A stretch of DNA of 56,448 bases from a virus (Duplodnaviria; Caudoviricetes), in IMG/VR virus record IMGVR_UViG_3300038321_000147, positions 1 to 56,448 of that record. One strand, 5' to 3'. A program made the translations under genes and the position numbers. Numbering within the stretch: the first letter of the stretch is position 1; the number at the start of each line of letters is the position of its first letter. The notes below the pieces were generated by a model. That model was not told where the DNA came from, did no database searches, and saw only the letters and a program-made list of their open reading frames with translations. Below are positions 1 through 56,448 of this stretch, piece by piece.

Positions 1-21
1 ATATAGGAGGGAGGGTTATAT

Positions 22-288
22 TTAGACCCCCTCCCCCGGTCCTTCGTCTTCCTCATTCTCATAAACCTTCTTATACAATCCATTAATGTTCAATTGAACA
101 ATCTCATCAATTGCATATTCAGTTAGTCGATCGTTTTCTTCATCTGTTAAATCATCTGCGACTTTAGCTATTCTAGCGAGGTAGCCACAGGTGTAGTATT
201 TCTTATCCTCATCATAACGTAGCCAGTCATTCCATTGAGTGAATGGATTGAATGGATTATCTATCGTTGTTAACATAACAGCACTCAT
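22..288 (-). CDS. conserved phage hypothetical protein
   Basis: 88 aa ORF; start overlaps the RNAP stop (TAATG coupling); no recognisable function. Confidence 0.75.
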   Translation of the reverse strand: MSAVMLTTIDNPFNPFTQWNDWLRYDEDKKYYTCGYLARIAKVADDLTDEENDRLTEYAIDEIVQLNINGLYKKVYENEEDEGPGEGV

Positions 289-3146
289 TATGAACCTCCT
301 TTTAAAGCTTTGGATAGGGTTGATACGGAAACACCTAACATGTCTGAGATTTGTGCCAGGGTTCGCCCTTGTTCTTGATAGATTCTAGCACGTGCGAGTT
401 TACTATCTGACAAAACAATCTTCTCTCTTGGTGTTGCTAAGTCTTGTATAACATCTAAGTTCGTATTATTCAAGATACTTGACAACAATGAATTACTAAT
501 TGCTCCAGCTTCGATAGCTTCCCATTCCTTCTCTGTAATTTCAATTCTTTGTTTGCTAGCACCAATTCGTTCCCTCATATCGTTTAGCACTTGACCCTTC
601 AATTTCTTTACTTGTGATGCGTCCATGTCAGGATTAGCTGCTTTACTAGCTTCAACAATTTTATTACCAACTAAATGGACTTGGCGTTCTAATGGTGCAT
701 TAGACAAGGCGATGCGAAGTTTCGCATTAAGGGAGTCAACTTCCTCGGCGTATGCTATTTTGGCTGACTTCGAATAAGGTGTCATCTTTATATTGGCGCT
801 CTCTTTACGGGCTAGGTCACCCAGTTTCTTCATGGCGTTGGCGTAGTCGGCGTAGACTATTTCTATGTCGGCTGGATCTTTACTCATTAATGTACGGGCG
901 TCAGGGGTTTCATACATCTTAGTGGATTTAATTTTGGTGGTTACGAATTGACCATTCTTTTTATAATAACCATCTCCTGTTAGTGCGAATACTTTCTCTC
1001 CAGTTTCAACATCGACTGAGTATTCACCTTTACGAACAAGCTTTCTCCCAGTTGCAAGGGCTTGTTCTTTGATTAGGGCCTTCCTTTTAGGGACACGCTC
1101 TTCAGAAGAAGCTTTACTTATTAAGGTGGATGCACCACGAGGGTTGGTTATTGTTCCGCCCTGGTATTTAGCTTTTAATTCCGCTATTCTATTATCATCA
1201 TATGATTGCTTGTAGTTCAGGTTATGTTTCTCGGCATCAATAACAACCATGGAATGTTTAACAGCTCTTGCTATCTCATTAGGTGGTGCACCTTTAATGG
1301 TCATGTCCGTAATAAGGTTCGATACTTTGCCCATCTCTCTTTGTTTAACCTTGTTAGACATTGGTATCATGCCATCATATGCGGGATACGCTGTCTTTGG
1401 ATTAAACCCTTCCAAAGTCTTCGGTAAATTCGAGGTTTTAATAATGCGTGGGTCGTAGGGTATAGCTATTACGCTATCTCCATCAAAATCAGCACCGGAT
1501 AATCGCTCGGCGGTAGCTGGTGTGATACCAATAGCATCGACACCGTCTCCTATTACAGAGATAGCTTCTTTATTTTTAGTATTATTAACCACGATTGGTA
1601 TCTCAAATGTGCCGGCATGTGGATAACGTATAAGAGCAAGCTGTTCGCCATCTCTATAACTTGTTGAGTAACATTCGTTATCTTTTAAAGACACGATGGG
1701 AAGGATGACATTCGACGTTTGTCTCGGAAGAGCTGCGGCTTTAAGGTGTACGGCTTTAGAGTCGCAGTCGTCAGCAAATGAATCAAGTAAACGTTGTTTA
1801 ACAGCAGGTTGCGTTATCTTCATATACTGATCGAATGTTTCTTTTTGGTCGATATAGGCAAGATTTAACTGTTGTTTAGCTAATTCTGGCGATTGTTTTG
1901 ACAGAAATTGACTGGATAGAGTCTTACTCCATGTTTGCCAACTACCCTCAACGCCAGAGTCTTGTTTACCAGCAAATCCAACAATATTGAGGGCTGATTG
2001 TTGCTCTTTTCCATTTTTATCAGTATATGTTAGCTGTCTTATCGATGCACCAAATTCGTTAATTTTTTGTTTACCATCTGCATCGATGTAAATAGAACCG
2101 CCGTCCTCTTTTTCAATGGTCTCGTTCATCTTCTTCATTGCTCCCAGCTTACCTACTGACGATTTCTTTGTTGAGTTGTAAATTATATCCACACCAGGTG
2201 GTATATCATCTGAATATATGGCCATACCCTTCATATAATGGGAGTCGTCCACAGCGATCCTGACTTGTCCATAGCGGGTGTCTGGTGGAAGTGCTATGTC
2301 TGGAACTCCACGACGAAGTTGTATAACGCCATCCATATCCGATCCCGATGGTTTATCATCGTCAAATCTTACCATGATTCTTTTCGAATCGACCGATACA
2401 GGTGGTTTAATTGATTTATATGTCAATCCACCGTCTGAAGACCAATCCGAAATTAATCGAATGTCCGCAGAGTGCTTAGAAGTGTAAACATACGCTATTG
2501 TTGAATCTTGTTCTTCTTTTGTTTTTGATTTCCATTTTTCAGGATCTTTTATTTCGTATTCTGTTCTTGCTTTTTTCATTGTCTCGGGTGACATTAGAAC
2601 TCTAACAGTTGTCTTGTTAGTTGTTCCTAATTGTGGTGTTTGTATTTCGGTTACGACATATCCTTTTTGTTGGAGTTCGTATATAGACACGTCCATTTTT
2701 GTTCTTGTAACACCTAGATGGAGATTTGATGCTCTACCAACATCTATCATACCTTTTTTGTCAGCTTGTTCTTTTAACATTTGTTTAGTAGCTGCTGTAA
2801 TTCTATGACGCTCCTGTGTTTGCGGTAGTAGGATATTTTTTACGGTGTTAGGACTAATCCCCATTCTTTTTGATATGGCAACGTCGGAGTATCCCTTTGC
2901 ACGTAAACGAGAAGCCATAGCTACCTGTGATCCATATTTCGCCTCAGCCTCCATATGTTTCTGTGCACGCAGTTCGACTGTATTTTTTAAGCCCAGTGCA
3001 GTGGCAATTTCGGCTTCAGTTAAACCATCTTTCTTTAATTCCGATACTCTTGTAGCGAATGATTTTGATCTTTGTGGGTTTTCTCCCGAACCCCATGGGT
3101 ATCTACCACTATGACGCGGGGTCCCATAATGCCGAATATAAGTCAT
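288..3146 (-). CDS. single-subunit two-barrel (YonO/QDE-1-like) RNA polymerase with N- and C-terminal HTH domains
   Basis: Catalytic loop RLSGADFDGD (nt 1476-1490) preceded by RYPH; second-barrel-like motifs DMDG and QVRI..MKG; HTH-like segments EIATALG, AISKRMGISPNTV, LAQISDMLGVSVSTL; start moved to ATG 3146 (AGGAG RBS). Confidence 0.8.
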   Translation of the reverse strand: MTYIRHYGTPRHSGRYPWGSGENPQRSKSFATRVSELKKDGLTEAEIATALGLKNTVELRAQKHMEAEAKYGSQVAMASRLRAKGYSDVAISKRMGISPNTVKNILLPQTQERHRITAATKQMLKEQADKKGMIDVGRASNLHLGVTRTKMDVSIYELQQKGYVVTEIQTPQLGTTNKTTVRVLMSPETMKKARTEYEIKDPEKWKSKTKEEQDSTIAYVYTSKHSADIRLISDWSSDGGLTYKSIKPPVSVDSKRIMVRFDDDKPSGSDMDGVIQLRRGVPDIALPPDTRYGQVRIAVDDSHYMKGMAIYSDDIPPGVDIIYNSTKKSSVGKLGAMKKMNETIEKEDGGSIYIDADGKQKINEFGASIRQLTYTDKNGKEQQSALNIVGFAGKQDSGVEGSWQTWSKTLSSQFLSKQSPELAKQQLNLAYIDQKETFDQYMKITQPAVKQRLLDSFADDCDSKAVHLKAAALPRQTSNVILPIVSLKDNECYSTSYRDGEQLALIRYPHAGTFEIPIVVNNTKNKEAISVIGDGVDAIGITPATAERLSGADFDGDSVIAIPYDPRIIKTSNLPKTLEGFNPKTAYPAYDGMIPMSNKVKQREMGKVSNLITDMTIKGAPPNEIARAVKHSMVVIDAEKHNLNYKQSYDDNRIAELKAKYQGGTITNPRGASTLISKASSEERVPKRKALIKEQALATGRKLVRKGEYSVDVETGEKVFALTGDGYYKKNGQFVTTKIKSTKMYETPDARTLMSKDPADIEIVYADYANAMKKLGDLARKESANIKMTPYSKSAKIAYAEEVDSLNAKLRIALSNAPLERQVHLVGNKIVEASKAANPDMDASQVKKLKGQVLNDMRERIGASKQRIEITEKEWEAIEAGAISNSLLSSILNNTNLDVIQDLATPREKIVLSDSKLARARIYQEQGRTLAQISDMLGVSVSTLSKALKGGS

Positions 3147-3157
3147 ATGTGCTCTCC

Positions 3158-3706
3158 TCACTCTTTCATTTCGTTGATCCTTTTGTCAAATAGAATAATT
3201 TTATCCATTATATATGCGATGTCATCTAAGTCTGGATGTTCGATAAGAACATCGTTTGACTGGTATATTCTCAGTTCAATATCGATATCCCTTGGATTAT
3301 AACCATACTCTAGACAAAATAGAGCTGCATAAATTCTAAGTTGTTGCATTGACGCGGGGGTTCTACCATTTTTTAAATCATGGATACGTAGCATATTGTT
3401 ATGGAATGAAACCGCATCGGCTGTCCCAAAACAATTAAAAGAATAGAATAAACAAACTTCAGGATCCATCCTGAATCCGATTCCATCATTGACATACATA
3501 TCAAATGTCTTTTTAGTCTTTGGTAATTTAACCCTTAATTTTATTAATTTTGCGGCAAGCTCATGGAGCTCTGTGCCAAGTTGGGAATTTCGCCAATTAA
3601 TATATACAGCTTCCATTTTCTCATCATCGTATCCTACCCATGCGTGTTTGCTTGGTGCCAAGAATGCATGTACTCCTTCTAGTTGGTGATGGTGGTTAAA
3701 TTTCAC
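3158..3706 (-). CDS. PD-(D/E)xK-fold (Cas4/RecB-like) nuclease
   Basis: GTELH...FGTADAV...IHDLKNG...QLRIY motif pattern. Confidence 0.7.
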   Translation of the reverse strand: MKFNHHHQLEGVHAFLAPSKHAWVGYDDEKMEAVYINWRNSQLGTELHELAAKLIKLRVKLPKTKKTFDMYVNDGIGFRMDPEVCLFYSFNCFGTADAVSFHNNMLRIHDLKNGRTPASMQQLRIYAALFCLEYGYNPRDIDIELRIYQSNDVLIEHPDLDDIAYIMDKIILFDKRINEMKE

Positions 3707-4086: not shown

Positions 4087-4113
4087 CTATTATACGGCAT
4101 GTTTTTGTTGCGA
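4085..4113 (-). promoter_or_regulatory. repeated phage promoter, copy 1
   Basis: TCGCAACAAAAACATGCCGTATAATAGAA. Confidence 0.75.
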
Positions 4114-9797: not shown

Positions 9798-9799
9798 CC

Positions 9800-10155
9800 C
9801 CCTTTCGACGATTTCTAGTCGTTTGTTACGAAAACGCACAAAAACAATACGTTTGTGTAATTCTCCATATAAAATTTTTATATGTTTTATTATATTATAT
9901 TATACTATAAAATTTCTACAGAAATAATATAGACAAAAGCGTAAAAAGCGTCATTTGTGTCACAGAAATCTTATTTTGGCCACTTTTCTCGAATATATAG
10001 CGTCATTTGGGTCCAAATATTGAGTTTTCGCATGTTTCTGTTATCATTCATAATGATGAAAATGTTACCTTTTTTGTGACGAAAATATTCACGATTTAAC
10101 CAAAGTGTCACAATTCGATGAATTTCTTCAAAAGTGTCACACGAAAGTGTACCAA
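9800..10155. other. putative replication origin (AT-rich tract plus GTGTCACA repeats)
   Basis: AT-rich stretch ~9866-9935; GTGTCACA at 9957, 10105, 10134, partial copies at 10075 (inverted) and 10147; immediately upstream of the replicase. Confidence 0.45.
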
Positions 10156-10930: not shown

Positions 10931-10958
10931 TTCTATTATAGGGTTTGATATCTTTGCA
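10931..10958 (-). promoter_or_regulatory. repeated phage promoter, copy 2
   Basis: TGCAAAGATATCAAACCCTATAATAGAA. Confidence 0.7.
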
Positions 10959-10961
10959 CCT

Positions 10962-12592: not shown

Positions 12593-12810
12593 TATTTACT
12601 CCTCCTAAATATCTCTTTTGCAATTACTAGAAGATGTATAACCATTGCCGCATCTTCCGGTGTTTGTGCATTTTTTGCGATTCCTTGAACTCTCTTCTCA
12701 AAACAGTCCCAACACATTGTTTGATTGTATCCAAATTCGCCCCACATTATATAGTTGTTACACTCTGTGCATTTGCTATTTGATATCAATGGACTCATCT
12801 CAACCTCCAA
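12592..12810 (-). CDS. small zinc-finger protein
   Basis: CTEC...CWDC. Confidence 0.55.
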   Translation of the reverse strand: MEVEMSPLISNSKCTECNNYIMWGEFGYNQTMCWDCFEKRVQGIAKNAQTPEDAAMVIHLLVIAKEIFRRSK

Positions 12811-12874
12811 TTAATAATATAACCTATCCATTTGTATTCCGAATCGCTCGTTATGACCAATTAGAATGAGAATA

Positions 12875-13643: not shown

Positions 13644-13670
13644 TTCTATTATAGGGTATGTTTTATTCAT
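13644..13670 (-). promoter_or_regulatory. repeated phage promoter, copy 3
   Basis: ATGAATAAAACATACCCTATAATAGAA. Confidence 0.7.
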
Positions 13671-15046
13671 TAAAACTCCTCCTTCAACCTTTGAACCTCT
13701 AAAAGGACTTTTCTTCCTTTATCGAACTTCTTGGCAAACTCATCTTCTTTTCCTTTTATAAGAGGTGGTCCTAAATATAAACCATCCAAAGGTATCTCTA
13801 ACTTAGTATCAAGATTCACCAAACTTAAAGATAATTTAAAATCCTCAGATGCTTCTTTACCGCCAGTTTCCCAAATATCCTCACCAACACAACCCGCACT
13901 AATAGCCTTTCGAGCGTGAACCGGTCCAAAACCTTCAACACCCTTAATGTTATCTGACTTATCACCTACCAAAGCCTTGTAGACACTATATTTGGCCGCT
14001 GGAATACCACATTCAAGCTCAAAGGCATTACGGTCCAGGAAGAGACCAGGAGCCCTGTAAATCAAAACCCTGTCCCATGCGAGGCATTGTTGTAGATCCC
14101 TATCTCCGGAAAATATCACGACGTCTGTCTTATACTTTAAATGACAGTCACAATTCTCACAAGGAGTTACACACAAACACCTATGACATTTTTCATTTAC
14201 TATACTCGCAATAACATCATCTGCCTCAGCACCGTCGACACTAATAATATCCCAACCTAAGAACCTTATAATATCTTCCAACCCGCTCCTAAATTTTTGG
14301 AATTTATCGTCATTCATAGGCTTTCTATTTCCTTTATAGCCTTCAAAAATATCACAGCGTTTTAATTTTGTTTTGCTCTCACCAGCAAATATCACCTTGA
14401 GAGGAACGCCCCTTTGTTTACTACGCTTTACACATAGACGTAACATATCAAAGAACTTACAATAGGCTACCCAGGCTCTTTTTGACGATATAAACCACGC
14501 CCTATATAATAAATTACTATAATCGACCAATACTAAAGTTTCTTCTGTTCCTTCAACTAAACTTTCTGGTGGTCTAAAATTATTGTTTCTCTTCATCCTA
14601 ACCTTTCCCTTCCTTCCAAATATAACAATCATAGATGGAAATGGAGCTGAATTTACACTATCCCCAAATTTCAATCTCCCTCGAATATAACGAATTTCAA
14701 TATTCTCATGATTGAGGATATAGTCATGAAAACGTTTAGTATCCGTCCTAGCAGGAATTAACATAACTGCCAAATATCCCTTCGCCCCATGCTCATAACA
14801 TTTACGGATCCATTGGTCTTGCATTCCACTGGAATATGGAGGATTACAAAACACCCTTTCGTTATCCCAGTCCTGGATTAGACCATTTTCTTTTTCAGTA
14901 TAATACTTCTCGCATTTAGCTGTTTCGGGTGTACAACAAGGATCCAATGTAAAGTGAAATTCTTCATCGAGCTCGTAAAATAAATCCTGGGGTGTTTCCC
15001 AATCATTCTTACCACTTGAAAATAGTGGATCCAAATTTGTACTCAA
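13670..15046 (-). CDS. DNA N6-adenine methyltransferase fused in frame to a 5'-3' exonuclease (FEN/RNase H-like)
   Basis: N-terminal WETPQ, LDPC, CNPPY, PARTDT; C-terminal VDYSN, EADD, SGDRD, LVGDKSDNIKGVEGFG; internal RBS+ATG at 14596. Confidence 0.8.
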   Translation of the reverse strand: MSTNLDPLFSSGKNDWETPQDLFYELDEEFHFTLDPCCTPETAKCEKYYTEKENGLIQDWDNERVFCNPPYSSGMQDQWIRKCYEHGAKGYLAVMLIPARTDTKRFHDYILNHENIEIRYIRGRLKFGDSVNSAPFPSMIVIFGRKGKVRMKRNNNFRPPESLVEGTEETLVLVDYSNLLYRAWFISSKRAWVAYCKFFDMLRLCVKRSKQRGVPLKVIFAGESKTKLKRCDIFEGYKGNRKPMNDDKFQKFRSGLEDIIRFLGWDIISVDGAEADDVIASIVNEKCHRCLCVTPCENCDCHLKYKTDVVIFSGDRDLQQCLAWDRVLIYRAPGLFLDRNAFELECGIPAAKYSVYKALVGDKSDNIKGVEGFGPVHARKAISAGCVGEDIWETGGKEASEDFKLSLSLVNLDTKLEIPLDGLYLGPPLIKGKEDEFAKKFDKGRKVLLEVQRLKEEF

Positions 15047-15058
15047 AATATCACACCT

Positions 15059-17866: not shown

Positions 17867-17894
17867 TCTATTATATAGGAAGATTTTATTGCGA
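17867..17894 (-). promoter_or_regulatory. repeated phage promoter, copy 4
   Basis: TCGCAATAAAATCTTCCTATATAATAGA; identical 28-mer at 18198-18225. Confidence 0.75.
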
Positions 17895-18196: not shown

Positions 18197-18225
18197 TTCT
18201 ATTATATAGGAAGATTTTATTGCGA
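18197..18225 (-). promoter_or_regulatory. repeated phage promoter, copy 5
   Basis: TCGCAATAAAATCTTCCTATATAATAGAA. Confidence 0.75.
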
Positions 18226-19203: not shown

Positions 19204-19230
19204 TTCATTATAGGGGACGATATGTCTGCA
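19204..19230 (-). promoter_or_regulatory. repeated phage promoter, copy 6
   Basis: TGCAGACATATCGTCCCCTATAATGAA. Confidence 0.7.
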
Positions 19231-19521
19231 TTATTTAGTAATTGATAGAATATGTTCCGCAATACACATTATATCATCAAGTGTGTTTTCTATTTCCTGT
19301 AGATAATCTACTATGCAAAAAGCTGTTGGCTCGACCATTGGATCAACCTCGCCATTTATGATAACATTATTAATAGTCAATAGTTTAAAGCGAAGTTCCT
19401 GTTGCTTATCATAGATTCTACCAACCCTATTCAATAGACTCTGTTCATTTTGTGCACTTGGATCTTCGAGTGATATTGGTCGGCCTTCCATTGCGCGTAC
19501 CATCATAGGTTTATTTGTCAT
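19231..19521 (-). CDS. hypothetical protein
   Basis: 96 aa ORF with AGGAGG RBS. Confidence 0.7.
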   Translation of the reverse strand: MTNKPMMVRAMEGRPISLEDPSAQNEQSLLNRVGRIYDKQQELRFKLLTINNVIINGEVDPMVEPTAFCIVDYLQEIENTLDDIMCIAEHILSITK

Positions 19522-22000: not shown

Positions 22001-22027
22001 CTCATTATAGGGTATGTTTATCATACG
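22001..22027 (-). promoter_or_regulatory. repeated phage promoter, copy 7
   Basis: CGTATGATAAACATACCCTATAATGAG. Confidence 0.7.
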
Positions 22028-22902
22028 AACCTTTTAAATATCGGTAAATTCAGTGATACTCCACCATTTCTATTCTTCGAATATGAAAAAGCCTCAATCT
22101 CAATATCTTTTCCTATGGGTGAGTTAATCACCATATCGGTACGATCGGCGTTATTTAGCCCACTTCCAACCCTCACTGGAACTGTACACCCAGGAACCTC
22201 GCAAATCAAAGCGGCCACCATACCTTCAATTTTTGTCCCTGGTCTAGCCATTTCAACGTCAACAACCCGACCTACGAACTCTTTAACCTTTTTAACCTTA
22301 AGAAGAGATTTACTACGCCCCGGAATATAAATAGAATCCATGTCCAATAACATCAAACCTTCACCTTTTCTTTTAACAACTTCATCCATTGTTTTCTTTA
22401 AGGTCTCTATATCTGCTCCTTGTATGTTTCCAAATATAGGGACTCTAATGATTGGGTCTTCGTTAGTCCCTCCATTAAAAGTCGAATACAGCTCCGCATC
22501 CCGTTCTCTTGCCAGTCTAAGATCTCCTCCTGGTTTGAATATGTCAAAGCAGATAGCCATGAGGTCTTGTTTGTTATCCGGATATTGTTGACTTGCTTTT
22601 GAATTTGTGTTTTGTCGTAAAACAAACGACGGTACCTGTTTAAAATATAATTCTCTGTCGACCAACTCGCAGTCGTAAACTCTATCCGAGGGCATCCAAG
22701 GAGCCTCGAGATACTCGAATATGTGTATAAGCCACTTGTCTTCAATATTTGTACGACTCCATGCAGTTATAGAACCGTCTGGCGCCTTGTAAAACAATCT
22801 TCGTACCCCATCAATCTTTTCTGACATACGCCAGAGCTTGCCTTCCAAGACAGTATCCGGATAATTGGCAAAGTTCTCACCTAGCATTGGTGTCAATTGC
22901 AT
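22021..22902 (-). CDS. ATP-dependent DNA ligase
   Basis: EKIDGVR (motif I), DCEL, FDI, EGLML, LLKVK, VGSG OB-fold. Confidence 0.9.
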   Translation of the reverse strand: MQLTPMLGENFANYPDTVLEGKLWRMSEKIDGVRRLFYKAPDGSITAWSRTNIEDKWLIHIFEYLEAPWMPSDRVYDCELVDRELYFKQVPSFVLRQNTNSKASQQYPDNKQDLMAICFDIFKPGGDLRLARERDAELYSTFNGGTNEDPIIRVPIFGNIQGADIETLKKTMDEVVKRKGEGLMLLDMDSIYIPGRSKSLLKVKKVKEFVGRVVDVEMARPGTKIEGMVAALICEVPGCTVPVRVGSGLNNADRTDMVINSPIGKDIEIEAFSYSKNRNGGVSLNLPIFKRFV

Positions 22903-23410: not shown

Positions 23411-23432
23411 AAAGAGAGCCTAAGCTCTCTCT
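23411..23432 (-). terminator. conserved GAGC-TTAG-GCTC intrinsic terminator
   Basis: AGAGAGAGCTTAGGCTCTCTTTT followed by ATGTTT. Confidence 0.75.
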
Positions 23433-23654: not shown

Positions 23655-23681
23655 TTCATTATAGGATCTGTTTAAACGGCA
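23655..23681 (-). promoter_or_regulatory. repeated phage promoter, copy 8
   Basis: TGCCGTTTAAACAGATCCTATAATGAA. Confidence 0.7.
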
Positions 23682-23693
23682 TAACCCTTTTTT

Positions 23694-23905: not shown

Positions 23906-23932
23906 TTCATTATAGGATATGTTTATATTACA
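23906..23932 (-). promoter_or_regulatory. repeated phage promoter, copy 9
   Basis: TGTAATATAAACATATCCTATAATGAA. Confidence 0.7.
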
Positions 23933-23967
23933 ATAAAAAGAAGAGAGCCTTTGTAGCTCTCGTCTTG

Positions 23968-24123: not shown

Positions 24124-24151
24124 TTCTATTATAGGAGGTGTTTATACTGCA
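24124..24151 (-). promoter_or_regulatory. repeated phage promoter, copy 10
   Basis: TGCAGTATAAACACCTCCTATAATAGAA. Confidence 0.7.
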
Positions 24152-24493
24152 TTATTTAAGATCGGTATTTAACTTAATAATTCTATCGATTTCCGTTGTA
24201 ACATTTCCGCCATTTCTACCATAGTGGCTATTGATTAATATCTGAAGAAATCTCCTCGTTGTAGTGTTAATAACAACACAAGTGTTATAATTAGGACATT
24301 CATCAGTGCACATTTGACTGCAACATGCTATAAGTCCGTCCTTAATCATTATGCGTACAGGTTTATCCTTCTTATCCATTGGTTCTTTATTTCGAAAATA
24401 AGGTTTATCTTCAGTTAAATAACATTTAGAACTATTTGGGCAAAACATTGTCTTATAATATATGCAATCTTGACAGTTCTTTATCACTATCAA
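24152..24493 (-). CDS. Cys-rich hypothetical protein
   Basis: Two Cys clusters; AGGAGG RBS. Confidence 0.65.
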   Translation of the reverse strand: MIVIKNCQDCIYYKTMFCPNSSKCYLTEDKPYFRNKEPMDKKDKPVRIMIKDGLIACCSQMCTDECPNYNTCVVINTTTRRFLQILINSHYGRNGGNVTTEIDRIIKLNTDLK

Positions 24494-24818: not shown

Positions 24819-24895
24819 TGAAAGGGCGAGTATCTCCAGATCTAGCCTTTCGACCGCTGGTAGCTATCTTACCTAGCAGTTTACCTCTCCTTTCA
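24819..24895 (-). ncRNA. promoter-driven structured small RNA (~77 nt)
   Basis: Ends pair (TGAAAGG/CCTTTCA); internal stems; GAAA loop; TTTATATTT tail; no ATG ORF. Confidence 0.55.
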
Positions 24896-24918
24896 TTAAA
24901 GGATATGTTTTAATTGCA
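24892..24918 (-). promoter_or_regulatory. repeated phage promoter, copy 11 (TTTAAT variant)
   Basis: TGCAATTAAAACATATCCTTTAATGAA. Confidence 0.65.
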
Positions 24919-24928
24919 TTCTCAAAAG

Positions 24929-25014
24929 TGAAAGAGCATGGCTAGTGGCTTCGAACCACGTCTCCGGTCGCCCGGCGAGTTACCATTACTCCATGCATTT
25001 ATCATGCTCCTTCA
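24929..25014 (-). ncRNA. tRNA-like small RNA lacking an anticodon loop (~86 nt)
   Basis: D-arm GAGT-AATGGTA-ACTC, CCGG-GCGA-CCGG, T-arm GTGG-TTCGAAG-CCAC, closing stem TGAAGGAGCATG/CATGCTCTTTCA. Confidence 0.6.
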
Positions 25015-25037
25015 TTATAGGGTGTGTTTTACTTGCA
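25011..25037 (-). promoter_or_regulatory. repeated phage promoter, copy 12
   Basis: TGCAAGTAAAACACACCCTATAATGAA. Confidence 0.75.
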
Positions 25038-25250
25038 ACAGATTAAAGCGAAACCCTTTGCGAATTGACCTCTTTTATTTCTTGCTCGTACGATAATCTT
25101 ATAAGGCCATGATTTCAATCTGCCGGATTTAGCCTCAGCCTCCACCCTGGTGTCAAAAGTATGTATTTCAACTCTCTTGGTTCCTTCCGGTGCCGCTAAT
25201 ATCACCTTAGCATACCTTTTAACTTCTGGTAATAATTCTTTCTTTTTCAT
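25029..25250 (-). CDS. basic hypothetical protein
   Basis: 73 aa; C-terminal RARNKRGQF. Confidence 0.65.
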   Translation of the reverse strand: MKKKELLPEVKRYAKVILAAPEGTKRVEIHTFDTRVEAEAKSGRLKSWPYKIIVRARNKRGQFAKGFALICCK

Positions 25251-25452: not shown

Positions 25453-25479
25453 TTCATTATAGGGTATGTTTTTATGTCA
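25453..25479 (-). promoter_or_regulatory. repeated phage promoter, copy 13
   Basis: TGACATAAAAACATACCCTATAATGAA. Confidence 0.7.
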
Positions 25480-25520
25480 TAAAGATCAAAATATAACATA
25501 AAAACCTTGAAAAATAGCTG

Positions 25521-25958: not shown

Positions 25959-25985
25959 CTCATTATAGGCTATGTTATCTCTGAG
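25959..25985 (-). promoter_or_regulatory. repeated phage promoter, copy 14
   Basis: TCAGAGATAACATAGCCTATAATGAG. Confidence 0.6.
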
Positions 25986-26388
25986 TATGGTCTGTGACCA
26001 TCATATTAACCCTTGGGTTATTAGCCCACAGTCTTTCCGCCTCTTCTAATGCCTTATTGATGATTGAATCTAAATTATCCTCGGTGATGTACTTCTTATA
26101 TTCATCGGGGATTCTTTTATACAATTCATCGATAACATAACTTCTCTTCAGGGTACCAGTCCCTCCACCAAATTGTATTTCCGCATCTGTGACTAGAACG
26201 AGTGCTATTGGTACAAGATTGGTTAGTAATCTAGTTATGTAGGCCATCTTTTCACCCATAGACATCTTTTCAAATATCGGACCGTATTTGGCCCTCCATT
26301 TCGTAAGGCCCGTCATAACACTCGCAAATAATAAAATTACCACTAAAATATCCTGCCAGTGGCGGGCAATAAATAATAATACTTGCAT
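25975..26388 (-). CDS. holin-like membrane protein
   Basis: N-terminal TM; LVTDAEIQFGGGTGTLKR resembles LL-H-type phage holins. Confidence 0.5.
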   Translation of the reverse strand: MQVLLFIARHWQDILVVILLFASVMTGLTKWRAKYGPIFEKMSMGEKMAYITRLLTNLVPIALVLVTDAEIQFGGGTGTLKRSYVIDELYKRIPDEYKKYITEDNLDSIINKALEEAERLWANNPRVNMMVTDHTQR

Positions 26389-27588: not shown

Positions 27589-27616
27589 TTCTATTATAGG
27601 CTAAGTTATTCTAGCA
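27589..27616 (-). promoter_or_regulatory. repeated phage promoter, copy 15
   Basis: TGCTAGAATAACTTAGCCTATAATAGAA. Confidence 0.7.
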
Positions 27617-27621
27617 ACTCA

Positions 27622-28946: not shown

Positions 28947-28974
28947 CTCATTATAGGGCATGTTTTTGATGCGA
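28947..28974 (-). promoter_or_regulatory. repeated phage promoter, copy 16
   Basis: TCGCATCAAAAACATGCCCTATAATGAG. Confidence 0.75.
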
Positions 28975-29194: not shown

Positions 29195-29222
29195 TTCTAT
29201 TATAGGGCATGTTTTATTAGGA
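29195..29222 (-). promoter_or_regulatory. repeated phage promoter, copy 17
   Basis: TCCTAATAAAACATGCCCTATAATAGAA. Confidence 0.7.
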
Positions 29223-29235
29223 AAAGAAAGAGAGA

Positions 29236-29371: not shown

Positions 29372-29399
29372 TTCATTATACGATATGTAAATGTTGCGA
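29372..29399 (-). promoter_or_regulatory. repeated phage promoter, copy 18
   Basis: TCGCAACATTTACATATCGTATAATGAA. Confidence 0.75.
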
Positions 29400-29699: not shown

Positions 29700-29758
29700 T
29701 ATTCTATTATAGGGTATGTTTAGTTGGGATAAAGAAAAGAGCCTAAGCTCTATCTTTT
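29700..29758. repeat. 59-bp direct repeat copy A (terminator + promoter copy 19)
   Basis: Identical to 29978-30036. Confidence 0.9.
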
Positions 29759-29977: not shown

Positions 29978-30036
29978 TATTCTATTATAGGGTATGTTTA
30001 GTTGGGATAAAGAAAAGAGCCTAAGCTCTATCTTTT
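29978..30036. repeat. 59-bp direct repeat copy B (terminator + promoter copy 20)
   Basis: Identical to 29700-29758. Confidence 0.9.
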
Positions 30037-30250: not shown

Positions 30251-30278
30251 TTCATTACAGGGTATGTAAATATTGCGA
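30251..30278 (-). promoter_or_regulatory. repeated phage promoter, copy 21 (TGTAAT variant)
   Basis: TCGCAATATTTACATACCCTGTAATGAA. Confidence 0.7.
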
Positions 30279-30316
30279 AAAAATAAGACCCTTTGAAAAC
30301 TTTTCAGGGTCTTATT
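30278..30316 (-). terminator. strong hairpin terminator between the structural and cassette regions
   Basis: AATAAGACCCT/AGGGTCTTATT 11-bp stem with T tract. Confidence 0.7.
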
Positions 30317-30354
30317 AAAGGAGGAGTTATATCCCTAATGGGTTAATTAAAATA

Positions 30355-30479
30355 TAAAAGATAAATGGGCTGCTCAGTTCACCCTTGTCCCTCTATATAC
30401 TTCACTCTTCGGTTATGGCATTTTCCGTTCGATTTAACGACCACGTGAAGTCCCTCAATAAAGTTCTTTTTACCTTTCA
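30355..30479 (-). ncRNA. candidate promoter-driven structured RNA (~125 nt)
   Basis: End pairing AAAGGTAAA/TTTATCTTT, internal ACTTCAC/GTGAAGT, TTTTATATTTT tail; only ~20-codon ORFs. Confidence 0.4.
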
Positions 30480-30502
30480 TTATATACCAAGTTTTTATTG
30501 CA
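30476..30502 (-). promoter_or_regulatory. repeated phage promoter, copy 22
   Basis: TGCAATAAAAACTTGGTATATAATGAA. Confidence 0.65.
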
Positions 30503-30504
30503 AC

Positions 30505-44859: not shown

Positions 44860-45759
44860 TCACCTCATCTTCTTCACGAAATCGAGGGATATCCATCCCG
44901 CGCCACTCTTAAGTCTTCCCCATTTTGAAGCTCCTGGACCGTCTGATTCCTCGACTATTGTGAAGACTTCGTTGCGATGAACTACGCCATTAATGGGGTG
45001 ATTCATTCCTGGCCCACGTCTATAATTTAAAGCATATGTATCGATTACGACAAGATATGGAAATTTCGGAAGAATGATCTCGGGTTTATACAAAATTTTA
45101 TTAACCTCGTCCGCGACCATTCCAAGATTTTCATAAATATATTCTCCTGGACATTCTCGTGGTGAGAACCATCTATGAACCGTTATATTTTGTTTGTCGA
45201 TTTGACCGATTAATGACTTATCGGCTTTCCATAGGAGTTTTGGTATGTTGTTCCTTGAACAGATGTCCACACATAAATTAATTAGACCGTTTAAGGCTTT
45301 ATCTGTGATTTTGTATGGATAGAAATTATCGGAAGCTATTTCGATTGTAATAGCTCTCTGGTCGTTTGACTCGGACGAGCTACACCACGAACGATTCTTT
45401 TCTTCAACATACATCCCAACATTACCATGATCATCTATACCGTAATTGGAACTTGCTCGGCGTTCTATCGGGGCGAATATATTACCTAGTGTTTGGAGGG
45501 ATGCGTGACCAACCACGCAATGCGGAGTAATCGTGTCAATTTTGCGAGTTCGTAAACCCGAATTATTTGGAGATAATCTAGTGTAGGAGACTAGAGGTGA
45601 GTTGCTCATTTCAGGTATATCGTCCATAAGGTGATCTACCTGATATTCGTCTTTTCCTTTGTTGTCGGTTAGCCATATTAATGATGGTAAACATTGTTCG
45701 CAGGTGTCTTGTTCTTCGACGCCTGGTATGAAATCTTTTGTGCATAGAGAACATTTCAT
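44860..45759 (-). CDS. endolysin: N-acetylmuramoyl-L-alanine amidase + SH3b
   Basis: ITPHC, ASSNY, AITIE, HRWF..ECPG; C-terminal LNYRRGPG..WGRLKSGAGWISL. Confidence 0.9.
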   Translation of the reverse strand: MKCSLCTKDFIPGVEEQDTCEQCLPSLIWLTDNKGKDEYQVDHLMDDIPEMSNSPLVSYTRLSPNNSGLRTRKIDTITPHCVVGHASLQTLGNIFAPIERRASSNYGIDDHGNVGMYVEEKNRSWCSSSESNDQRAITIEIASDNFYPYKITDKALNGLINLCVDICSRNNIPKLLWKADKSLIGQIDKQNITVHRWFSPRECPGEYIYENLGMVADEVNKILYKPEIILPKFPYLVVIDTYALNYRRGPGMNHPINGVVHRNEVFTIVEESDGPGASKWGRLKSGAGWISLDFVKKMR

Positions 45760-50249: not shown

Positions 50250-51572
50250 TCAGAGTGTTTTGAGTTCGCGTTTCAAACGTTCGATTTGTTCGGAAACCTT
50301 CTCCCGCGTTGGTGGATGCTCGATTAAATCTTCTTCCTCCTCTGCTTTCGGTTTAATGTTATTTCCATTTTGATTATTTGGTTCCGGCATATTCTTATTA
50401 CTTAATTCATTTGCACGTGGTTCATTTGATGGTTTTCTACCAATAATCTGACGTAATTCATTAGATGTTAGTATGGCATTACGGCTAAATACATCCGCAA
50501 TATTGGCTAATTCAGTAGCTGGAACAAGTCTGAATATGTCACGGAAACCCATGATGGAATGGCCTTGGGTTCTTGCTGTTTTTGTCAAGAACTTGCGAAT
50601 CATTTCATCGACGATCGCTGTAACAATTGGTTCGACTGTTCGGTCGTAATAATTACGAAGCTCCGACTCAGTAGCCTTTCCCGTAAATATAGCCTCGGAC
50701 ATACCAAGTTGATTGTAGAATGTTGTTGTCAAATATTGAACTTGTGCTAATAAATTATTCTCAACTGGACGATTTAACTGTGTGATGCGTTCGGTAGCAT
50801 CAGCATAGGCTATACCATATTGACTACCTTCTAGTTGATCGGCAATCGCTTGGACTCTACCTTTGGCTTCCGCTTTTCTTGTTTCTGACTTGACGGTATA
50901 TGGTAATTGGATGATTAGATCTAATTTACCAGAACTCATCTTATCATCGGTTACATCGAGAAGACTAAGTTTACTTCTTAATCGTTGTAAGGTTGAGTTT
51001 GGTTCGTTCATAATTGCATATAATGGATTTTCAATTATACCAACAATCGATTTTGGAACCGTTATTGTTTGTTTTACACCACGATTATCGTCGTAAACTT
51101 CAACTCGAACGTGATTTGGAAACCATTCCTTAATTTTACCAGTTCTAAGTGATAAAATCTTATATCCATCGGATATCGTTGGGTTTACCATTGTGTCAAC
51201 CGGTACAATCGCAACGACACCTTCGTCAAACATACTCATCACAATGTCCTGAATAAATGCTCGACCTGTTTGATCTTTATTTGCCTCCACGGTAAGACAA
51301 TGGTTTAAAGAGTCTTTAATTGTTTCTAAATAACGATCTTCATTATCCAACCGGACATGTTGTAGATCGAAACTAGCAACATCCATTGCGATTTTTGTGG
51401 TAATAGTTGAAATAATAGATCTTTCGCTTCCCCTGGATAAACGAACTTGTCCTGGGTTGACCGATGAGACGTATCCGAGATCTTGGGTGACATACCGTGT
51501 GTTTTCTTCAGGATTTCTAAAGACATTCCAGGCATGTTTCAACCTGTTGCTAAATGAATCCATTTCAATCAC
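50250..51572 (-). CDS. portal protein
   Basis: Position; HK97-like portal, C-terminal TSNELRQIIG. Confidence 0.85.
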   Translation of the reverse strand: MIEMDSFSNRLKHAWNVFRNPEENTRYVTQDLGYVSSVNPGQVRLSRGSERSIISTITTKIAMDVASFDLQHVRLDNEDRYLETIKDSLNHCLTVEANKDQTGRAFIQDIVMSMFDEGVVAIVPVDTMVNPTISDGYKILSLRTGKIKEWFPNHVRVEVYDDNRGVKQTITVPKSIVGIIENPLYAIMNEPNSTLQRLRSKLSLLDVTDDKMSSGKLDLIIQLPYTVKSETRKAEAKGRVQAIADQLEGSQYGIAYADATERITQLNRPVENNLLAQVQYLTTTFYNQLGMSEAIFTGKATESELRNYYDRTVEPIVTAIVDEMIRKFLTKTARTQGHSIMGFRDIFRLVPATELANIADVFSRNAILTSNELRQIIGRKPSNEPRANELSNKNMPEPNNQNGNNIKPKAEEEEDLIEHPPTREKVSEQIERLKRELKTL

Positions 51573-52044
51573 CCTTCCTCATTAGATTTTCTTTCTTGTA
51601 AGCAACCTTACCAGATTTAAAAACGCCTTTTCTTAACTGCTCCATATCGTAACCTGCATCAGCGACTGCTGTGTGAACCCCAATTTCCCCACGTTTAGCG
51701 ACAAACTTTAACACTCGCCCAGATGGAGCCTGTATTCCAGAAACTCTTTCGTTCATGAGCGATGCTAATTTATTGTTATACTGTAAAATTGTGGCGGACG
51801 AAATACGACCAGTTGAAGTATATGACATTTCTAATTGGGTTTTAACAAAGTTGTCCATTTCTTTCGATGTTGTTTTTTGAATTTTTGCCCTAATTTTTTC
51901 ACCTTTTGTTTCAGCCCACTTGATGTCTTTCTTATCTAGTCGGGCACGCCCCTTTGGCGTCAGGGATCCATCAGGGTTCTGATACCGTCTAACTCCCCAT
52001 TTCATTCCCTTAATTCCATGATGTTGAAGGACTGTCTGATTCAT
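51565..52044 (-). CDS. HHGxxGxKWGVRR-motif protein (candidate internal head protein)
   Basis: LQHHGIKGMKWGVRRYQNPDGSLT. Confidence 0.75.
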   Translation of the reverse strand: MNQTVLQHHGIKGMKWGVRRYQNPDGSLTPKGRARLDKKDIKWAETKGEKIRAKIQKTTSKEMDNFVKTQLEMSYTSTGRISSATILQYNNKLASLMNERVSGIQAPSGRVLKFVAKRGEIGVHTAVADAGYDMEQLRKGVFKSGKVAYKKENLMRKGD

Positions 52045-52056: not shown

Positions 52057-52704
52057 TTATTTCTTATCTTTGGATTTCATACCAAATGCATCGTCTGCGA
52101 ATTGTGGAGCCATTTGTCGCACAAAGATCTTTGCGCTACCTAAAAAGACACCTTTACTAAATTCGGATAAGGCTTCCCCGCCGCCTTTAAGTACTGCCTT
52201 TTTCACAAAAGATTCACTCTTCTCTATCTTCTCAGCAGTTAGTCTTTTATAGGTTTCCTCTAATTGTAGTCTTTCATTCAACTTTTTTAGTTCTTCATTT
52301 GAAAGTCCACCTGGAGCTTTAGATTTGGAATCTCGACTCTTAATATGATCTTCGGATTTACTAGATCCTTCCTCGCGTCTTTTTCCAGCAAGAGTCCTAG
52401 TTCCATCTTTGTTTTGAAACCGTCTAACTCCCCATTTTTGACCTAAAATACCGTAATGGTATAGTTGGTTAATCGGTGTGGTTGTATCGATTTTAAACGG
52501 TTGTTCGTAGGTATCTTTTTCGCCCGATCGTCGCTTTAAATCCCTTATTGTATCTTCGACTTCGCGCTCACTTCTGAGTCGCTCCAACATACGGCGAAGT
52601 TCGGGTAAAGATAATTCCGAAATACTTTTAGTTTTGTCAGGCTCTAGGTTAAATCGGGTATCAGTTGGTTCGTCGTAATAATGTTTAATAATTTTATTGG
52701 CCAT
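52057..52704 (-). CDS. HYGxxGxKWGVRR-motif protein (candidate internal head protein)
   Basis: LYHYGILGQKWGVRRFQNKDGTRT; start corrected to MANKIIKH (AAGGAG RBS); two LSxxEL...ERLxxE repeats. Confidence 0.75.
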   Translation of the reverse strand: MANKIIKHYYDEPTDTRFNLEPDKTKSISELSLPELRRMLERLRSEREVEDTIRDLKRRSGEKDTYEQPFKIDTTTPINQLYHYGILGQKWGVRRFQNKDGTRTLAGKRREEGSSKSEDHIKSRDSKSKAPGGLSNEELKKLNERLQLEETYKRLTAEKIEKSESFVKKAVLKGGGEALSEFSKGVFLGSAKIFVRQMAPQFADDAFGMKSKDKK

Positions 52705-52720
52705 CCGCTTCTCCTTTCTA

Positions 52721-53239
52721 TTAATATTTATCAACTTGTTCTTTAAACTGTAAAGTTTCAAGATGATGATCTTTAATACGCCATGGATCATCTTTATATA
52801 TTGGATGATCTGAATAATATAGTGGATTTTTATCTCTTATTTCTTGAATCCATCTAGTAAGTCTTTCGTGTCGACTCAAATCTTCTTTAAAATCTCTCCA
52901 ATGTCCATGTTCTTTATACTGATTTCCTAGAAGATTTTTGGGGTTTTCATAATCTTAGCATGAATATAATCTAAATCTTTCTCAGTGATGCTTAATATTT
53001 CTTTTTCTTTGGTGGTGAGATTCGGAATTTTTGATCGTCTTAGTTTTTCTGTTTCGTGCTGTCGGAGCTCTTGTTTATCTATCTGTGAAATCCGTTTCTT
53101 ACCTTGCGGTGTAAGACTACCATCTTTATTCTGATATCGTCTAACCCCCCCACTTCATACCTAGAATACCAAAGTGCCGTAATTCTGGATTAGATCGAAG
53201 TGTTTCTATATCGGAATGTTTAATAACTTTATTCGCCAT
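52721..53239 (-). pseudogene. frameshifted HFGxxGxKWGVRR-motif gene
   Basis: MANKVIKH...LRHFGILGMKWG then G7 run (53145-53151) gives a stop; G6 restores VRRYQNKDGSLT; a second shift near 52955 is needed to reach the stop at 52721. Confidence 0.7.
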
Positions 53240-55268: not shown

Positions 55269-55618
55269 ATAGTGTCGCCCACTTCGACAAGTTTATTTGT
55301 TTGGACAGTAATACGCCACTCATACTCAGAAATCTGTTTCTCGATCGAGTCGACAAGAAAGGAATTCTGTGGAGGATCGAACATCAGTCGAACTTTTAAA
55401 TAAACAAACGATTTAATTATTTCAAGATCTTTTCGTCCCTGTGTAAATTCTTCCCAAACATTATTCTTATCCGTGATGGAGTAGAATTCTGGTCCAACGC
55501 CCAACTGATTTATAATCATAAGGGCTCCGTTGATATGTATGATTAATTCCTTATCGAAATTATTATCATTGACGTCGATGCCAAGTAATTGCTTTATAGA
55601 ATCCAAAATACTTACCAT
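55265..55618 (-). CDS. head-tail connector (gp6-like)
   Basis: SILDSIKQLLG..FD.ELIIHIN; VYLKVRLMFDPP. Confidence 0.7.
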   Translation of the reverse strand: MVSILDSIKQLLGIDVNDNNFDKELIIHINGALMIINQLGVGPEFYSITDKNNVWEEFTQGRKDLEIIKSFVYLKVRLMFDPPQNSFLVDSIEKQISEYEWRITVQTNKLVEVGDTI

Positions 55619-56022
55619 AGTAGGGTGTCCCCCTTTCTTCTTTCTCGTGGCAATCTTAATAGATTATTTTCATTACCATATGTGATAGCCTGATGTGTGT
55701 TAAAAGATGTAGATATTAAGAATTCTGGATCGAGTAACGCGTCATAATTATTTTCAAAGTCATCGATAATTATCGGGTTCATATGGTGAACATAGATTCG
55801 ATCTAAAATATCCCGTCCTGGAATTCCTAAGTCGCACCCATTGTCTCTAAGGATTACTTGATTCCTAGCTTGCTTCCAGTCATATGATGTGTAAAAAATC
55901 TGATTTAAATATCTATCTCTTCCAAACGTTTGATGGCCGACTTTTCCGCCTAAAACTAAATAAGCAAATCTCTCTTCGAAAGTTGGTATGGTGATTAGTT
56001 CAGAATATGTTTTAATCATCAT
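55612..56022 (-). CDS. HNH endonuclease (packaging-associated)
   Basis: RD.GCD...VHHMN...LI...THQAI; next to the terminase genes. Confidence 0.75.
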   Translation of the reverse strand: MMIKTYSELITIPTFEERFAYLVLGGKVGHQTFGRDRYLNQIFYTSYDWKQARNQVILRDNGCDLGIPGRDILDRIYVHHMNPIIIDDFENNYDALLDPEFLISTSFNTHQAITYGNENNLLRLPRERRKGDTLLW

Positions 56023-56356
56023 ATCGATTGTCGATGTCGTCTGCTCCAGAATATGCGCGCATGGCTTTGAGCGCGTCTGAATAGAGTTCTTCGACCCTCT
56101 TCTGTGATTGGAGTGCTTCAGTTTTTGCCGCGATTAATTCTTTTTGTAATTCGAGAATCTGCTTCTCGGTCTTAGCGGTTGGAGAACCAGCCTTCATCAA
56201 ATATACAAGTTCTTGTGCACTTGCCGTTCCATTTCTAATTCTTTTTTCAGTGGCGTCCATGGCAAGGGCCACTAACTGTTGTTCTCTTCCTTCTGGAGTT
56301 GTAGCCGGTGGAGTTCTTGCTAACTTTTCAGCAGAAGTTGTATACTTTTTAGCCAT
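56012..56356 (-). CDS. putative terminase small subunit
   Basis: First gene of the packaging module; helical/coiled coil; start corrected to MAKKY (GGGGG RBS). Confidence 0.55.
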   Translation of the reverse strand: MAKKYTTSAEKLARTPPATTPEGREQQLVALAMDATEKRIRNGTASAQELVYLMKAGSPTAKTEKQILELQKELIAAKTEALQSQKRVEELYSDALKAMRAYSGADDIDNRYDD

Positions 56357-56448
56357 AATGACCCCCTTTAAATATACTTTTGTAATAGTTTGAACCGGGT
56401 ATTTTCGGGAATGTCCCAAGAATTTAACCCCCGGGGAAAATATAAGGA

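Follow-up and report, generated by a model that had tools for sequence, protein, structure and literature searches.

The IMG/VR virus contig IMGVR_UViG_3300038321_000147, analysed over its full 56,448 bp and referred to here as the window, encodes a single-chain two-barrel RNA polymerase with helix-turn-helix (HTH) domains at both ends, and carries 22 copies of a fixed-spacing, promoter-like motif on its gene strand. As judged by sequence comparison, the motif accompanies the polymerase in phages of both Actinobacteria and Firmicutes. We lean, with restrained confidence, towards the view that the 22 copies are the polymerase's own promoters and that the enzyme is probably delivered by the virion. 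A functional link between motif and polymerase is plausible on this comparative evidence, and unproven.

The motif consensus consists of box 1 (T[C/T]GCA), six nucleotides, box 2 (ACA(T/C)), four nucleotides, the hexamer TATAAT and a final RGAA. All 22 copies lie on the gene (minus) strand between 4089 and 30503, with none in the structural half of the genome, and the initial annotation of this DNA had counted and placed them correctly. A position weight matrix (PWM) trained on 20 of the window's own sites returned 22 minus-strand sites of at least 23.8 bits at 4094-30484, a single weak site (12.5 bits) at 35773, and nothing on the plus strand. A second pattern, derived independently from relatives (TCGC-N7-ACA-N5-TATAAT, at most 2 mismatches), gave 18 matches in the window, 15 of them on the minus strand, against 2.49 +/- 1.39 in shuffled sequence; none of 100 shuffles reached 18. 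Fifteen copies are fully intergenic and the other seven overlap only the last bases of the upstream open reading frame (ORF). In 16/22 a start codon with a ribosome-binding site follows the end of the hexamer at 18-36 nt, and a T-run lies no more than 30 nt upstream of the motif in seven, in six of which it forms the tail of a terminator-like hairpin.

In the direction of transcription the first copy (30479..30503) stands directly after the last tail gene. It is supported by the PWM, the relatives' pattern and its placement, as are those at 30254..30278 (hexamer TGTAAT), 29375..29399, 29199..29223, 28950..28974, 27593..27617, 25962..25986, 25014..25038, 24128..24152, 23909..23933, 23658..23682 and 22004..22028, together with the identical pair at 18201..18225 and 17870..17894. 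PWM and placement identify the copies at 25456..25480, 24895..24919 (hexamer TTTAAT), 19207..19231, 13648..13672 (with a 202-nt leader) and 10935..10959, as well as two that sit in a duplicated terminator-plus-promoter cassette (family D4; 29984..30008 and 29706..29730). The last copy (4089..4113, TCGCAACAAAAACATGCCGTATAAT) matches the family pattern with zero mismatches and lies upstream of a VRR-Nuc-like ORF, an exonuclease gene and the polymerase gene. Four metatranscriptome runs placed on 12000-31000 yielded contigs from relatives, mostly 90-95% alike, from which neither starts nor ends nor strand can be read. Genes cannot be ranked by contig depth, and DNA may have been carried over in such runs, so nothing is drawn from them. 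In two studies the deepest contigs fall at 17619-18226 and cover the pair of small genes that follow the identical copies at 18201 and 17870.

The copies depart from sigma-type promoters in their spacing. Box 1 lies 13 bp from the hexamer in every copy rather than the sigma-type 16-18, and CC, not TG, precedes the hexamer, so that neither a -35 hexamer 16-18 bp upstream nor a TG extension is present. A sigma-70-type scan called one of the 22 copies (27617, shifted), and sigma-70-type sites are not enriched in the window (75 vs 85.5 +/- 9.4 and 74 vs 76.0 +/- 9.3 expected). The hexamer itself is TATAAT in 20 copies, TGTAAT in one and TTTAAT in one. The centres of boxes 1 and 2 lie about 11 bp from each other, approximately one helical turn. 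No other promoter class able to drive the ~60 early and middle genes is enriched in the window, and neither the cos junction nor the left end showed a second conserved motif.

The same motif is present in 15/15 other polymerase-bearing genomes examined, on the gene strand and outside the structural arm, with 1-37 gene-strand matches per genome and at least five in 13 of them. Counted with the relatives' pattern at up to 2 mismatches (gene strand/other strand), where the window scores 15/3, these are Kenosha 10/0, ReqiPepy6 17/0, BitterVaud1 6/0, DrGrey 11/0, CaptnMurica 10/0, Mudcat 7/0, RosaAsantewaa 5/0, G001 5/1, G002 7/0, Lactococcus phage 1706 3/0 (10 sites by its TATAGT variant), Qui (113 kb) 37/2, Count 13/0, D_HF4_2 5/0, Pippin15 9/0 and MT835495 1/0. 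The hosts of motif-bearing phages include Lactococcus, Bifidobacterium, Streptomyces, Gordonia, Rhodococcus, Arthrobacter, Microbacterium and Curtobacterium. Five phages that lack the polymerase are at background: sk1 0/0, phiC31 0/0, SPbeta 2/3 in 134 kb, ReqiDocB7 1/0 and c2 0/1. Given Qui's 37 matches in 113.7 kb, motif copy number appears to rise with genome size; in this Arthrobacter phage (MN183282.1) most of the 37 forward matches are about 300 bp apart in one array at 37.6-48 kb.

Uncultivated relatives behave in the same way. Across 80 IMG/VR loci (453 kb upstream of the polymerase gene) there were 95 forward matches, 4 on the reverse strand and 33 with reversed-pattern controls. At least one forward match occurred in 60/80 loci, and in 30/32 of those with at least 8 kb of upstream sequence; 50 of the 95 lie no more than 1 kb from the polymerase ORF. 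In actinophages the conserved block extends beyond the hexamer (TATAAT-GAGACCCCTAC), which is typical of phage-polymerase promoters. Furthermore, the hexamer varies among relatives, being TTAAAT in 4/7 sites of RosaAsantewaa and TTTAAT or TTTAGT in 5/9 sites of Pippin15. The sigma-A hexamer pattern TAnnnT fits 20 of the 22 window copies, but not most sites in these two relatives, where T at the second hexamer position is, on sequence grounds, a poor fit to sigma-A recognition.

The polymerase gene occupies 288..3161 on the minus strand, where it would encode 957 amino acids from the GTG at 3161; the ATG at 3146 is the likelier start and gives 952. As the initial annotation had claimed, the catalytic metal-binding motif GADFDGD (aa 556-562; 1476..1496, minus strand) occurs once in six frames, beginning at 1496 within this ORF. 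Residues D558, F559, D560, G561 and D562 are invariant across 18 aligned homologues, as are R512 and P514 (RYPH), K311, R301 and D288, which are candidates for the further invariant Arg/Lys/Pro/Asp residues of both barrels (eight invariant positions in Ruprich-Robert and Thuriaux 2010). The protein matches phrog_4291 ('RNA-dependent RNA polymerase') over its whole length (E=0, 1062 bits), the best stretch placing aa 218-955 on profile positions 195-907 of 909. Pfam recognises HTH families only. In the N-terminal tandem HTH region (aa 36-111; 2829..3056, minus strand) these are HTH_23 at aa 82-111 (E 2.5e-10) and Sigma70_r4_2 at aa 89-109, and the structural model places helices at 35-44, 49-55, 93-100 and 104-110; the first unit (aa 36-60) is predicted from an internal repeat and the model. 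The C-terminal HTH (aa 910-955; 297..434, minus strand) is matched by HTH_3 (aa 925-955, E 1.3e-6) and Sigma70_r4 (aa 910-951, E 1.3e-5), and 13 homologues preserve its recognition helix, LG(V/I)S(V/T)STL.

An AlphaFold model built from 18 homologues has a mean predicted local distance difference test score (pLDDT) of 77.7. Against solved structures Foldseek ranked QDE-1 best (7y7r_A, E 1.7e-7, probability 1.0; 2j7n_A, E 4.9e-7). Further matches were to plant RDR2 (E 3.5e-4) and the P74-26 phage polymerase gp62 (E 1.2e-3), with bacterial beta' matched weakly (E at least 0.03); template-modelling (TM) scores are low, at 0.25-0.28. Searching the PDB by sequence returned only a weak match of the N-terminal region to a topoisomerase V helix-hairpin (E 1.8e-4). 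Together, the DxDGD loop and the predicted catalytic-core fold identify ORF 288-3161 as a two-barrel RNA polymerase of the QDE-1/YonO type, of about 110 kDa, with HTH domains at both ends. Because its catalytic residues are invariant, this HTH-bearing protein is probably a working polymerase.

Homologues of this protein are widespread. We found 250 phage records with a homologue at 34-47% identity, 249 of which cover at least 80% of the query, and at least 8,000 protein clusters at E<=1e-10. The phages infect Arthrobacter (95), Gordonia (55), Streptomyces (54) and Lactococcus (13), with further members from gut, oral, Bifidobacterium, Faecalibacterium and other sources, and among 100 matches listed the gene lies near one record end in nearly all. 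By sequence, the window protein is a full-length member, including both HTH ends, of the phrog_4291 family typified by orf75 of Lactococcus phage 1706; it agrees with the family in length, HTH ends, DxDGD loop and right-genome-end position, and differs from it in no essential respect. The family also includes the 'putative RNA polymerase' of Faecalibacterium phage FP_oengus and, in actinophage clusters BI/AM/AU/DJ/EL/CC, the HTH protein; for most members the annotation goes no further than 'helix-turn-helix DNA-binding protein'.

The initial annotation could not tell whether such a system had been described in relatives. The polymerase gene and its HTH ends are already in print, and so are not new. 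According to the parts of these sources available to us, Ruprich-Robert and Thuriaux (2010) placed the 1706 protein among five distantly related YonO-like families, and Koert et al. (bioRxiv 10.1101/842583) described HTH domains at both ends, the DxDGD loop and RdRP-like motifs, treating the protein, which 'could potentially have RNA polymerase activity', as the signature of a phage group that spans phyla. The word 'promoter' does not occur in the accessible text of that preprint, and in the literature searched (cluster papers included, supplements outside the search) we found neither the motif nor any link between this family and a promoter. Within that scope, neither the promoter-like motif nor its association with the polymerase across phyla appears to have been described.

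The window protein can be set beside several characterised polymerases. Like it, YonO of the Bacillus prophage SPbeta is a phage-encoded single-chain two-barrel enzyme, and the available account of it describes a processive DNA-dependent RNA polymerase whose promoter was left open (Forrest 2017). The polymerase-family profile finds no match in YonO/SPbeta at E<=1, and SPbeta, in which YonO reportedly transcribes one late operon, has the motif at background. The gp66 protein of crAss-like phage phi14:2 shares the QDE-1-like two-barrel fold and, so far as the accessible report goes, is packaged in the virion, rifampicin-resistant and responsible for early genes; it differs in its ~2,180 residues, the lack of a reported HTH domain and of a common early-promoter motif, and in that the conserved motif of phi14:2 is one for the host polymerase. 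P23-45 and P74-26 (tape-measure-fused gp96; non-virion gp64/gp62) provide small phage two-barrel enzymes with promoter motifs of their own, which differ in sequence from the window motif; the term 'helix-turn-helix' is absent from the available text of that preprint. The tape-measure protein of the window (37123-44052), unlike gp96, carries no polymerase. In the accessible portions of that work the P23-45 promoters were assigned to their polymerases by start-site mapping, chromatin immunoprecipitation and co-occurrence, and our own-promoter assignment follows this co-occurrence logic. DNA-templated RNA synthesis is reported for the YonO, gp66 and P23-45 enzymes, and is a candidate activity of the window enzyme. 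The eukaryotic QDE-1/RDR silencing polymerases, the best structural matches to the model, have only the catalytic core in common with it, lacking HTH ends and promoter use. T7 RNA polymerase, a single-chain enzyme with 17 promoters and a terminator, and the N4 virion polymerase, which is delivered from the virion, are functional analogies only; both are right-hand polymerases of unrelated fold.

Several observations point to the polymerase as the reader of the motif. [quoted passage not shown] Among these nine, Pfam finds an HTH in the polymerase only. Two are of unknown family and resemble a membrane protein (DUF6353) and a basic RG-rich protein; neither is sigma-like, and look-ups of their protein clusters returned 'hypothetical' and DUF6353 clusters only. 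The proposal of the initial annotation that the HTH polymerase and the motif work together thus gains comparative support, from their co-occurrence, the absence of a sigma-spaced -35 and the single conserved HTH candidate, and is as yet unproven.

We can propose a working mechanism on this basis. The fused HTH units would read box 1 and box 2, whose ~11-bp spacing may suit tandem HTH units on one helix face, and melting would take place at the A+T-rich hexamer, immediately upstream of the start. The polymerase would be carried in the virion and enter with the DNA, so that the early small-gene cluster and the replication genes could be transcribed by the phage enzyme without host sigma. The copy at 4089-4113 would then drive an operon ending in the polymerase gene itself. 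Once the cos ends are joined, this operon would point straight into the promoter-less packaging and structural module, a position that may suit both a virion component and a late-gene read-through switch. A more ambitious version is possible, and we put it forward only tentatively: a widespread, sigma-free, self-contained system in Gram-positive phages, in which a ~110-kDa three-HTH polymerase, packaged by its N-terminal peptide, would use a ~35-bp promoter (TCGCA-N6-ACA-N5-TATAAT-GAGA) conserved across Actinobacteria and Firmicutes, and late genes would be reached only by cos-joined read-through.

Delivery by the virion is suggested by GenBank EU081845.1, in which depositors labelled the 1706 homologue orf75 a 'structural protein', a label repeated in the ReqiPepy6 record. 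If the label stems from virion proteomics, the enzyme would enter with the DNA, and the difficulty of a polymerase gene lying behind its own motif would be removed. The polymerase also has an invariant N-terminal peptide (HYGTPRHSGRYPWGSG..P, aa 9-30; 3072..3137, minus strand), predicted to be disordered (pLDDT 30-37 over residues 1-32) and conserved in 1706, Mudcat and RosaAsantewaa, with H11, G13, S18, G19, R20, Y21, P22, G24, S25, G26 and P29 invariant. A role for this peptide in capsid loading is speculation. The initial annotation had seen in it a motif, and a possible loading tag, shared with head-region proteins. The head module does contain an ORF with an N-terminal DUF7211 motif (51565..52044, minus strand; HHGIKGMKWGVRR; PF23847 at aa 5-22, E 5.9e-11, 42 bits vs a cut-off of 27) and another with an internal DUF7211-like motif (52057..52791, minus strand; HYGILGQKWGVRR; aa 109-124, E 9.4e-6, 25.4 bits vs 27), the motifs reading HHGIKGMKWG and HYGILGQKWG. 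The likeness to the polymerase is superficial. A profile of polymerase N-termini run against the six-frame ORFs of nine genomes recovered 9/9 polymerases and neither DUF7211 ORF at E<=10, and Pfam found no DUF7211 match at E<=10 in the first 55 residues of the polymerase. As the profile matched polymerases only, the shared tag was dropped, being unsupported by either search. A third DUF7211-like motif (HFGILGMKWGG then stop) ends a 32-codon open stretch at 53144-53239 (minus strand), in the 376-nt gap between the terminase and the next ORF; the stretch looks like the remnant of a third head-module motif gene copy.

A number of points weigh against assigning the motif to the polymerase. The hexamer is the sigma-A -10 consensus, and many actinobacterial promoters function with only a -10 element. 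The phages that carry the polymerase are all related and syntenic, and co-occurrence with the motif is therefore not phylogenetically independent. The initial annotation had suggested examining co-occurrence and covariation together; the motif accompanies the polymerase in all genomes examined, but covariation gave no signal. When the one variable motif position considered (box 1 TCGCA vs TCGCG, 36 vs 20 loci) was compared with polymerase columns, HTH columns made up 6 of the top 25 against ~4.4 expected, a lack of enrichment that does not count against binding. No promoter was identified in the structural half, so its transcription must depend on something else, and the polymerase gene itself sits behind a motif copy, which requires virion delivery or some host transcription. 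The case for virion presence in turn depends on how depositors labelled a homologue of 34% identity, and since two oddly placed 1706 genes, orf62 and orf71, carry the same label, contamination of the preparation is possible. Known systems also offer contrary precedents: in the available parts of the phi14:2 work a tripartite motif marks host sigma-70 promoters while the early promoters of the virion polymerase are motif-less, and in those of Forrest (2017) YonO transcribes late, not early, genes. Finally, our assignment is a comparison of sequences, and the RNA contigs on the region cannot show starts.

The strongest competing explanation takes the hexamer at face value. Host sigma-A would use TATAAT as its -10, and a phage protein, either the HTH polymerase-like protein or an unrecognised factor, would bind boxes 1 and 2 near -30/-20 in place of the -35 contact; the catalytic activity of the polymerase would then serve elsewhere, for example on the late operon or another RNA. 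The model is the T4 middle promoter, at which MotA/AsiA act on an activator box near -30 with a sigma-type -10 and no -35. The perfect TATAAT of most copies agrees with it, as does an upstream box centred near -29 and 13 bp from the hexamer, which resembles MotA-box geometry, although the window motif has two upstream boxes about 11 bp apart. No homologue of MotA or AsiA was seen, though no search was aimed at one. Units that end in ordinary intrinsic terminators, and a motif-free structural module that leaves a possible separate job for the phage polymerase, are also in keeping with it, and the accessible crAss-like work supplies a precedent in which an extended conserved motif is a host promoter. 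Yet two relatives have T as the second hexamer base at most of their sites, a poor match for sigma-A, and conservation runs on through the start region in actinophages. Moreover, no conserved sigma-like or other HTH protein was found among the shared proteins; the only HTH candidate has the invariant catalytic residues that suggest a working polymerase, and two polymerases at one promoter would be less economical. We therefore regard this explanation as unlikely, while far from negligible.

A division of labour like that reported for YonO seems less probable still. Here the motifs would be strong host promoters for early and middle genes, and the polymerase would transcribe only the structural operon from another start. 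The accessible account of YonO transcribing the SPbeta late operon from one start site gives this a precedent, and both the position of the polymerase gene behind a motif copy and the 26-kb motif-free structural block, which would suit a processive enzyme, can be accommodated. Host sigma would nevertheless leave the fixed-spacing boxes 1 and 2 unexplained across eight host genera. Sites without a -35 or TG should be weak in a Firmicute, the other start has no counterpart in a second conserved motif at the cos junction or left end, and the 'structural protein' label on the 1706 homologue fits an early rather than a late role. We consider it very doubtful that the motif is some other oriented cis element, such as a repressor operator, a signal for packaging or replication, or a start-associated sequence linked to translation. 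The idea draws on unexplained intergenic repeats upstream of start codons that the available descriptions of actinophage clusters EC, EF, EG and EI mention. It sits badly with a -10-like hexamer at promoter distance from ribosome-binding sites, with the T-runs, mostly hairpin tails, just upstream of 7/22 copies, and with a copy that heads an ORF-less unit ending in a terminator; it would also leave the early and middle genes with no enriched promoter class at all.

Intrinsic terminators follow the units behind the motif copies. A stereotyped core (GAGCTTAGGCTC followed by a T-run) was found by pattern scan at 23416..23427, 23708-23719, 24520-24531, 25293-25304, 29488-29499, 29739-29750 and 30017-30028: seven occurrences at up to 1 mismatch, all on the minus strand, against 0.08 expected. 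Each has the G+C-rich hairpin and T-run on the transcribed strand that define an intrinsic terminator, and terminator-like sites number 32 in 20-40 kb against 9.7 +/- 3.3 expected. The stereotyped terminator of the initial annotation is therefore real; the suggestion that it is dedicated to the phage enzyme finds no support, as these are ordinary hairpin-plus-T-run terminators, copied along with promoters, and nothing ties them to that enzyme. Their sameness follows from duplication of the terminator-plus-promoter cassette (family D4, 95% identity).

Of the ORF-less structured transcripts also proposed there, one holds up in part. The promoter-to-terminator unit at 30272..30474 (minus strand), the first after the tail genes, contains no ORF and is a candidate small RNA conserved in a related contig (L025). 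Its promoter and first ~125 nt are 137/145 identical (94.5%) there, the adjacent tail gene 872/1111 (78.5%), and a length difference of 1 nt would disrupt every reading frame. None of the candidate RNAs has a significant folding z-score (-1.74 for 30272-30474, then -1.64 and -0.79), and Rfam finds no family at gathering score over the whole window and chance-level matches only at 24700-25100. It is credible that 30272-30474 is a non-coding RNA, one that is not significantly structured. A second unit, at 24921-25012 (minus strand) between two motif copies, can be folded into a cloverleaf that has a T-loop-like GGTTCGAAGCC and, as its 'anticodon' loop, 4 nt (z -1.64); neither ARAGORN nor Rfam called it, and it could encode an 18-28-aa peptide instead.

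The window as a whole is a cos-type siphovirus genome of the Lactococcus-1706/actinophage supercluster. IMG/VR classes the contig as linear and estimates it 94% complete; its G+C content is 33-43%, all mapped ORFs of at least 100 aa are on the minus strand, and ARAGORN calls no transfer RNA gene in it. In three related contigs, ~90% identical, window position 1 runs into position 56448, for which reason the window ends are best read, from these alignments, as the cos ends of a complete genome. The relatives have 8-9 bases between the joined ends that the window lacks (L006:4067-4076, L008:2758-2767, L012:939-948), probably the single-stranded cos overhang. A G+C-rich 10-bp hairpin (1..35, minus strand) lies just inside the right cos end, where position 1 joins 56448 in relatives. 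In transcription order, a packaging, head, tail and lysis block comes first (56419 down to 30505), its structural module forming one tightly packed 26-kb block; very small genes follow from 30.5 to ~22 kb; and a third block holds replication and nucleotide-metabolism genes, the polymerase gene and, last before the cos end, the 88-aa ORF (22..288, minus strand), which has tblastn matches in 1706, Mudcat and RosaAsantewaa.

The remaining genes place the system in context. The primase-polymerase ORF (5880-9839, minus strand) is distinct from the RNA polymerase, and megablast of this gene against phages gave no match; the tape-measure ORF is likewise on the minus strand. The gap upstream of the primase-polymerase (9791-9971, minus strand; 179 nt) is A+T-rich, contains three overlapping TATAAT repeats (TATAATATAATATAAT), and could be an origin or another kind of promoter. 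Within the structural block, before the tape-measure gene, lies an endolysin gene (44860-45759, minus strand; Amidase_2 and SH3_3) beside a likely holin-like ORF (44418-44855); in related actinophages a lysis gene lies left of the terminase gene. The early and middle region contains an ATP-dependent DNA ligase (22021-22902, minus strand; DNA_ligase_A_M, E 8e-13, with an OB domain). A likely anti-defence gene, ORF 19812-20456 (minus strand), matches Tad3, a Type I Thoeris inhibitor, in Pfam (aa 2-122, E 1.7e-35). There are two DUF6353 paralogues on the minus strand (Pfam E about 1e-65 each): that at 16539-17489 has a hydrophobic, membrane-helix-like N-terminus and is conserved in 1706, Mudcat and RosaAsantewaa, that at 27622-28401 in Mudcat and RosaAsantewaa only. 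A 458-aa ORF at 13670-15046 (minus strand) joins a DNA methyltransferase-like N-terminal part (phrog_111) to an exonuclease-like C-terminal part (phrog_107). No polymerase relatives were found among the genome contigs searched with single-protein patterns, and the only hint of a host is an 80%-identical partial protein in a Gudongella metagenome-assembled genome.

These observations bear on how minimal two-barrel polymerases find their promoters: for YonO the 2017 study named no promoter, and the crAss-like virion enzyme reportedly has no motif. The large family described here, with its at least 8,000 clusters and 250 sequenced phages, offers a candidate promoter with three fixed elements together with a built-in candidate reader, and makes the question testable in phages of the culturable hosts Lactococcus, Arthrobacter, Microbacterium and Gordonia. 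Should the polymerase prove to read the motif, thousands of annotations would be corrected, and a compact orthogonal expression system for Gram-positive bacteria would become available. More generally, it would mean that a polymerase core can gain promoter specificity by fusion to HTH domains instead of through a sigma factor.

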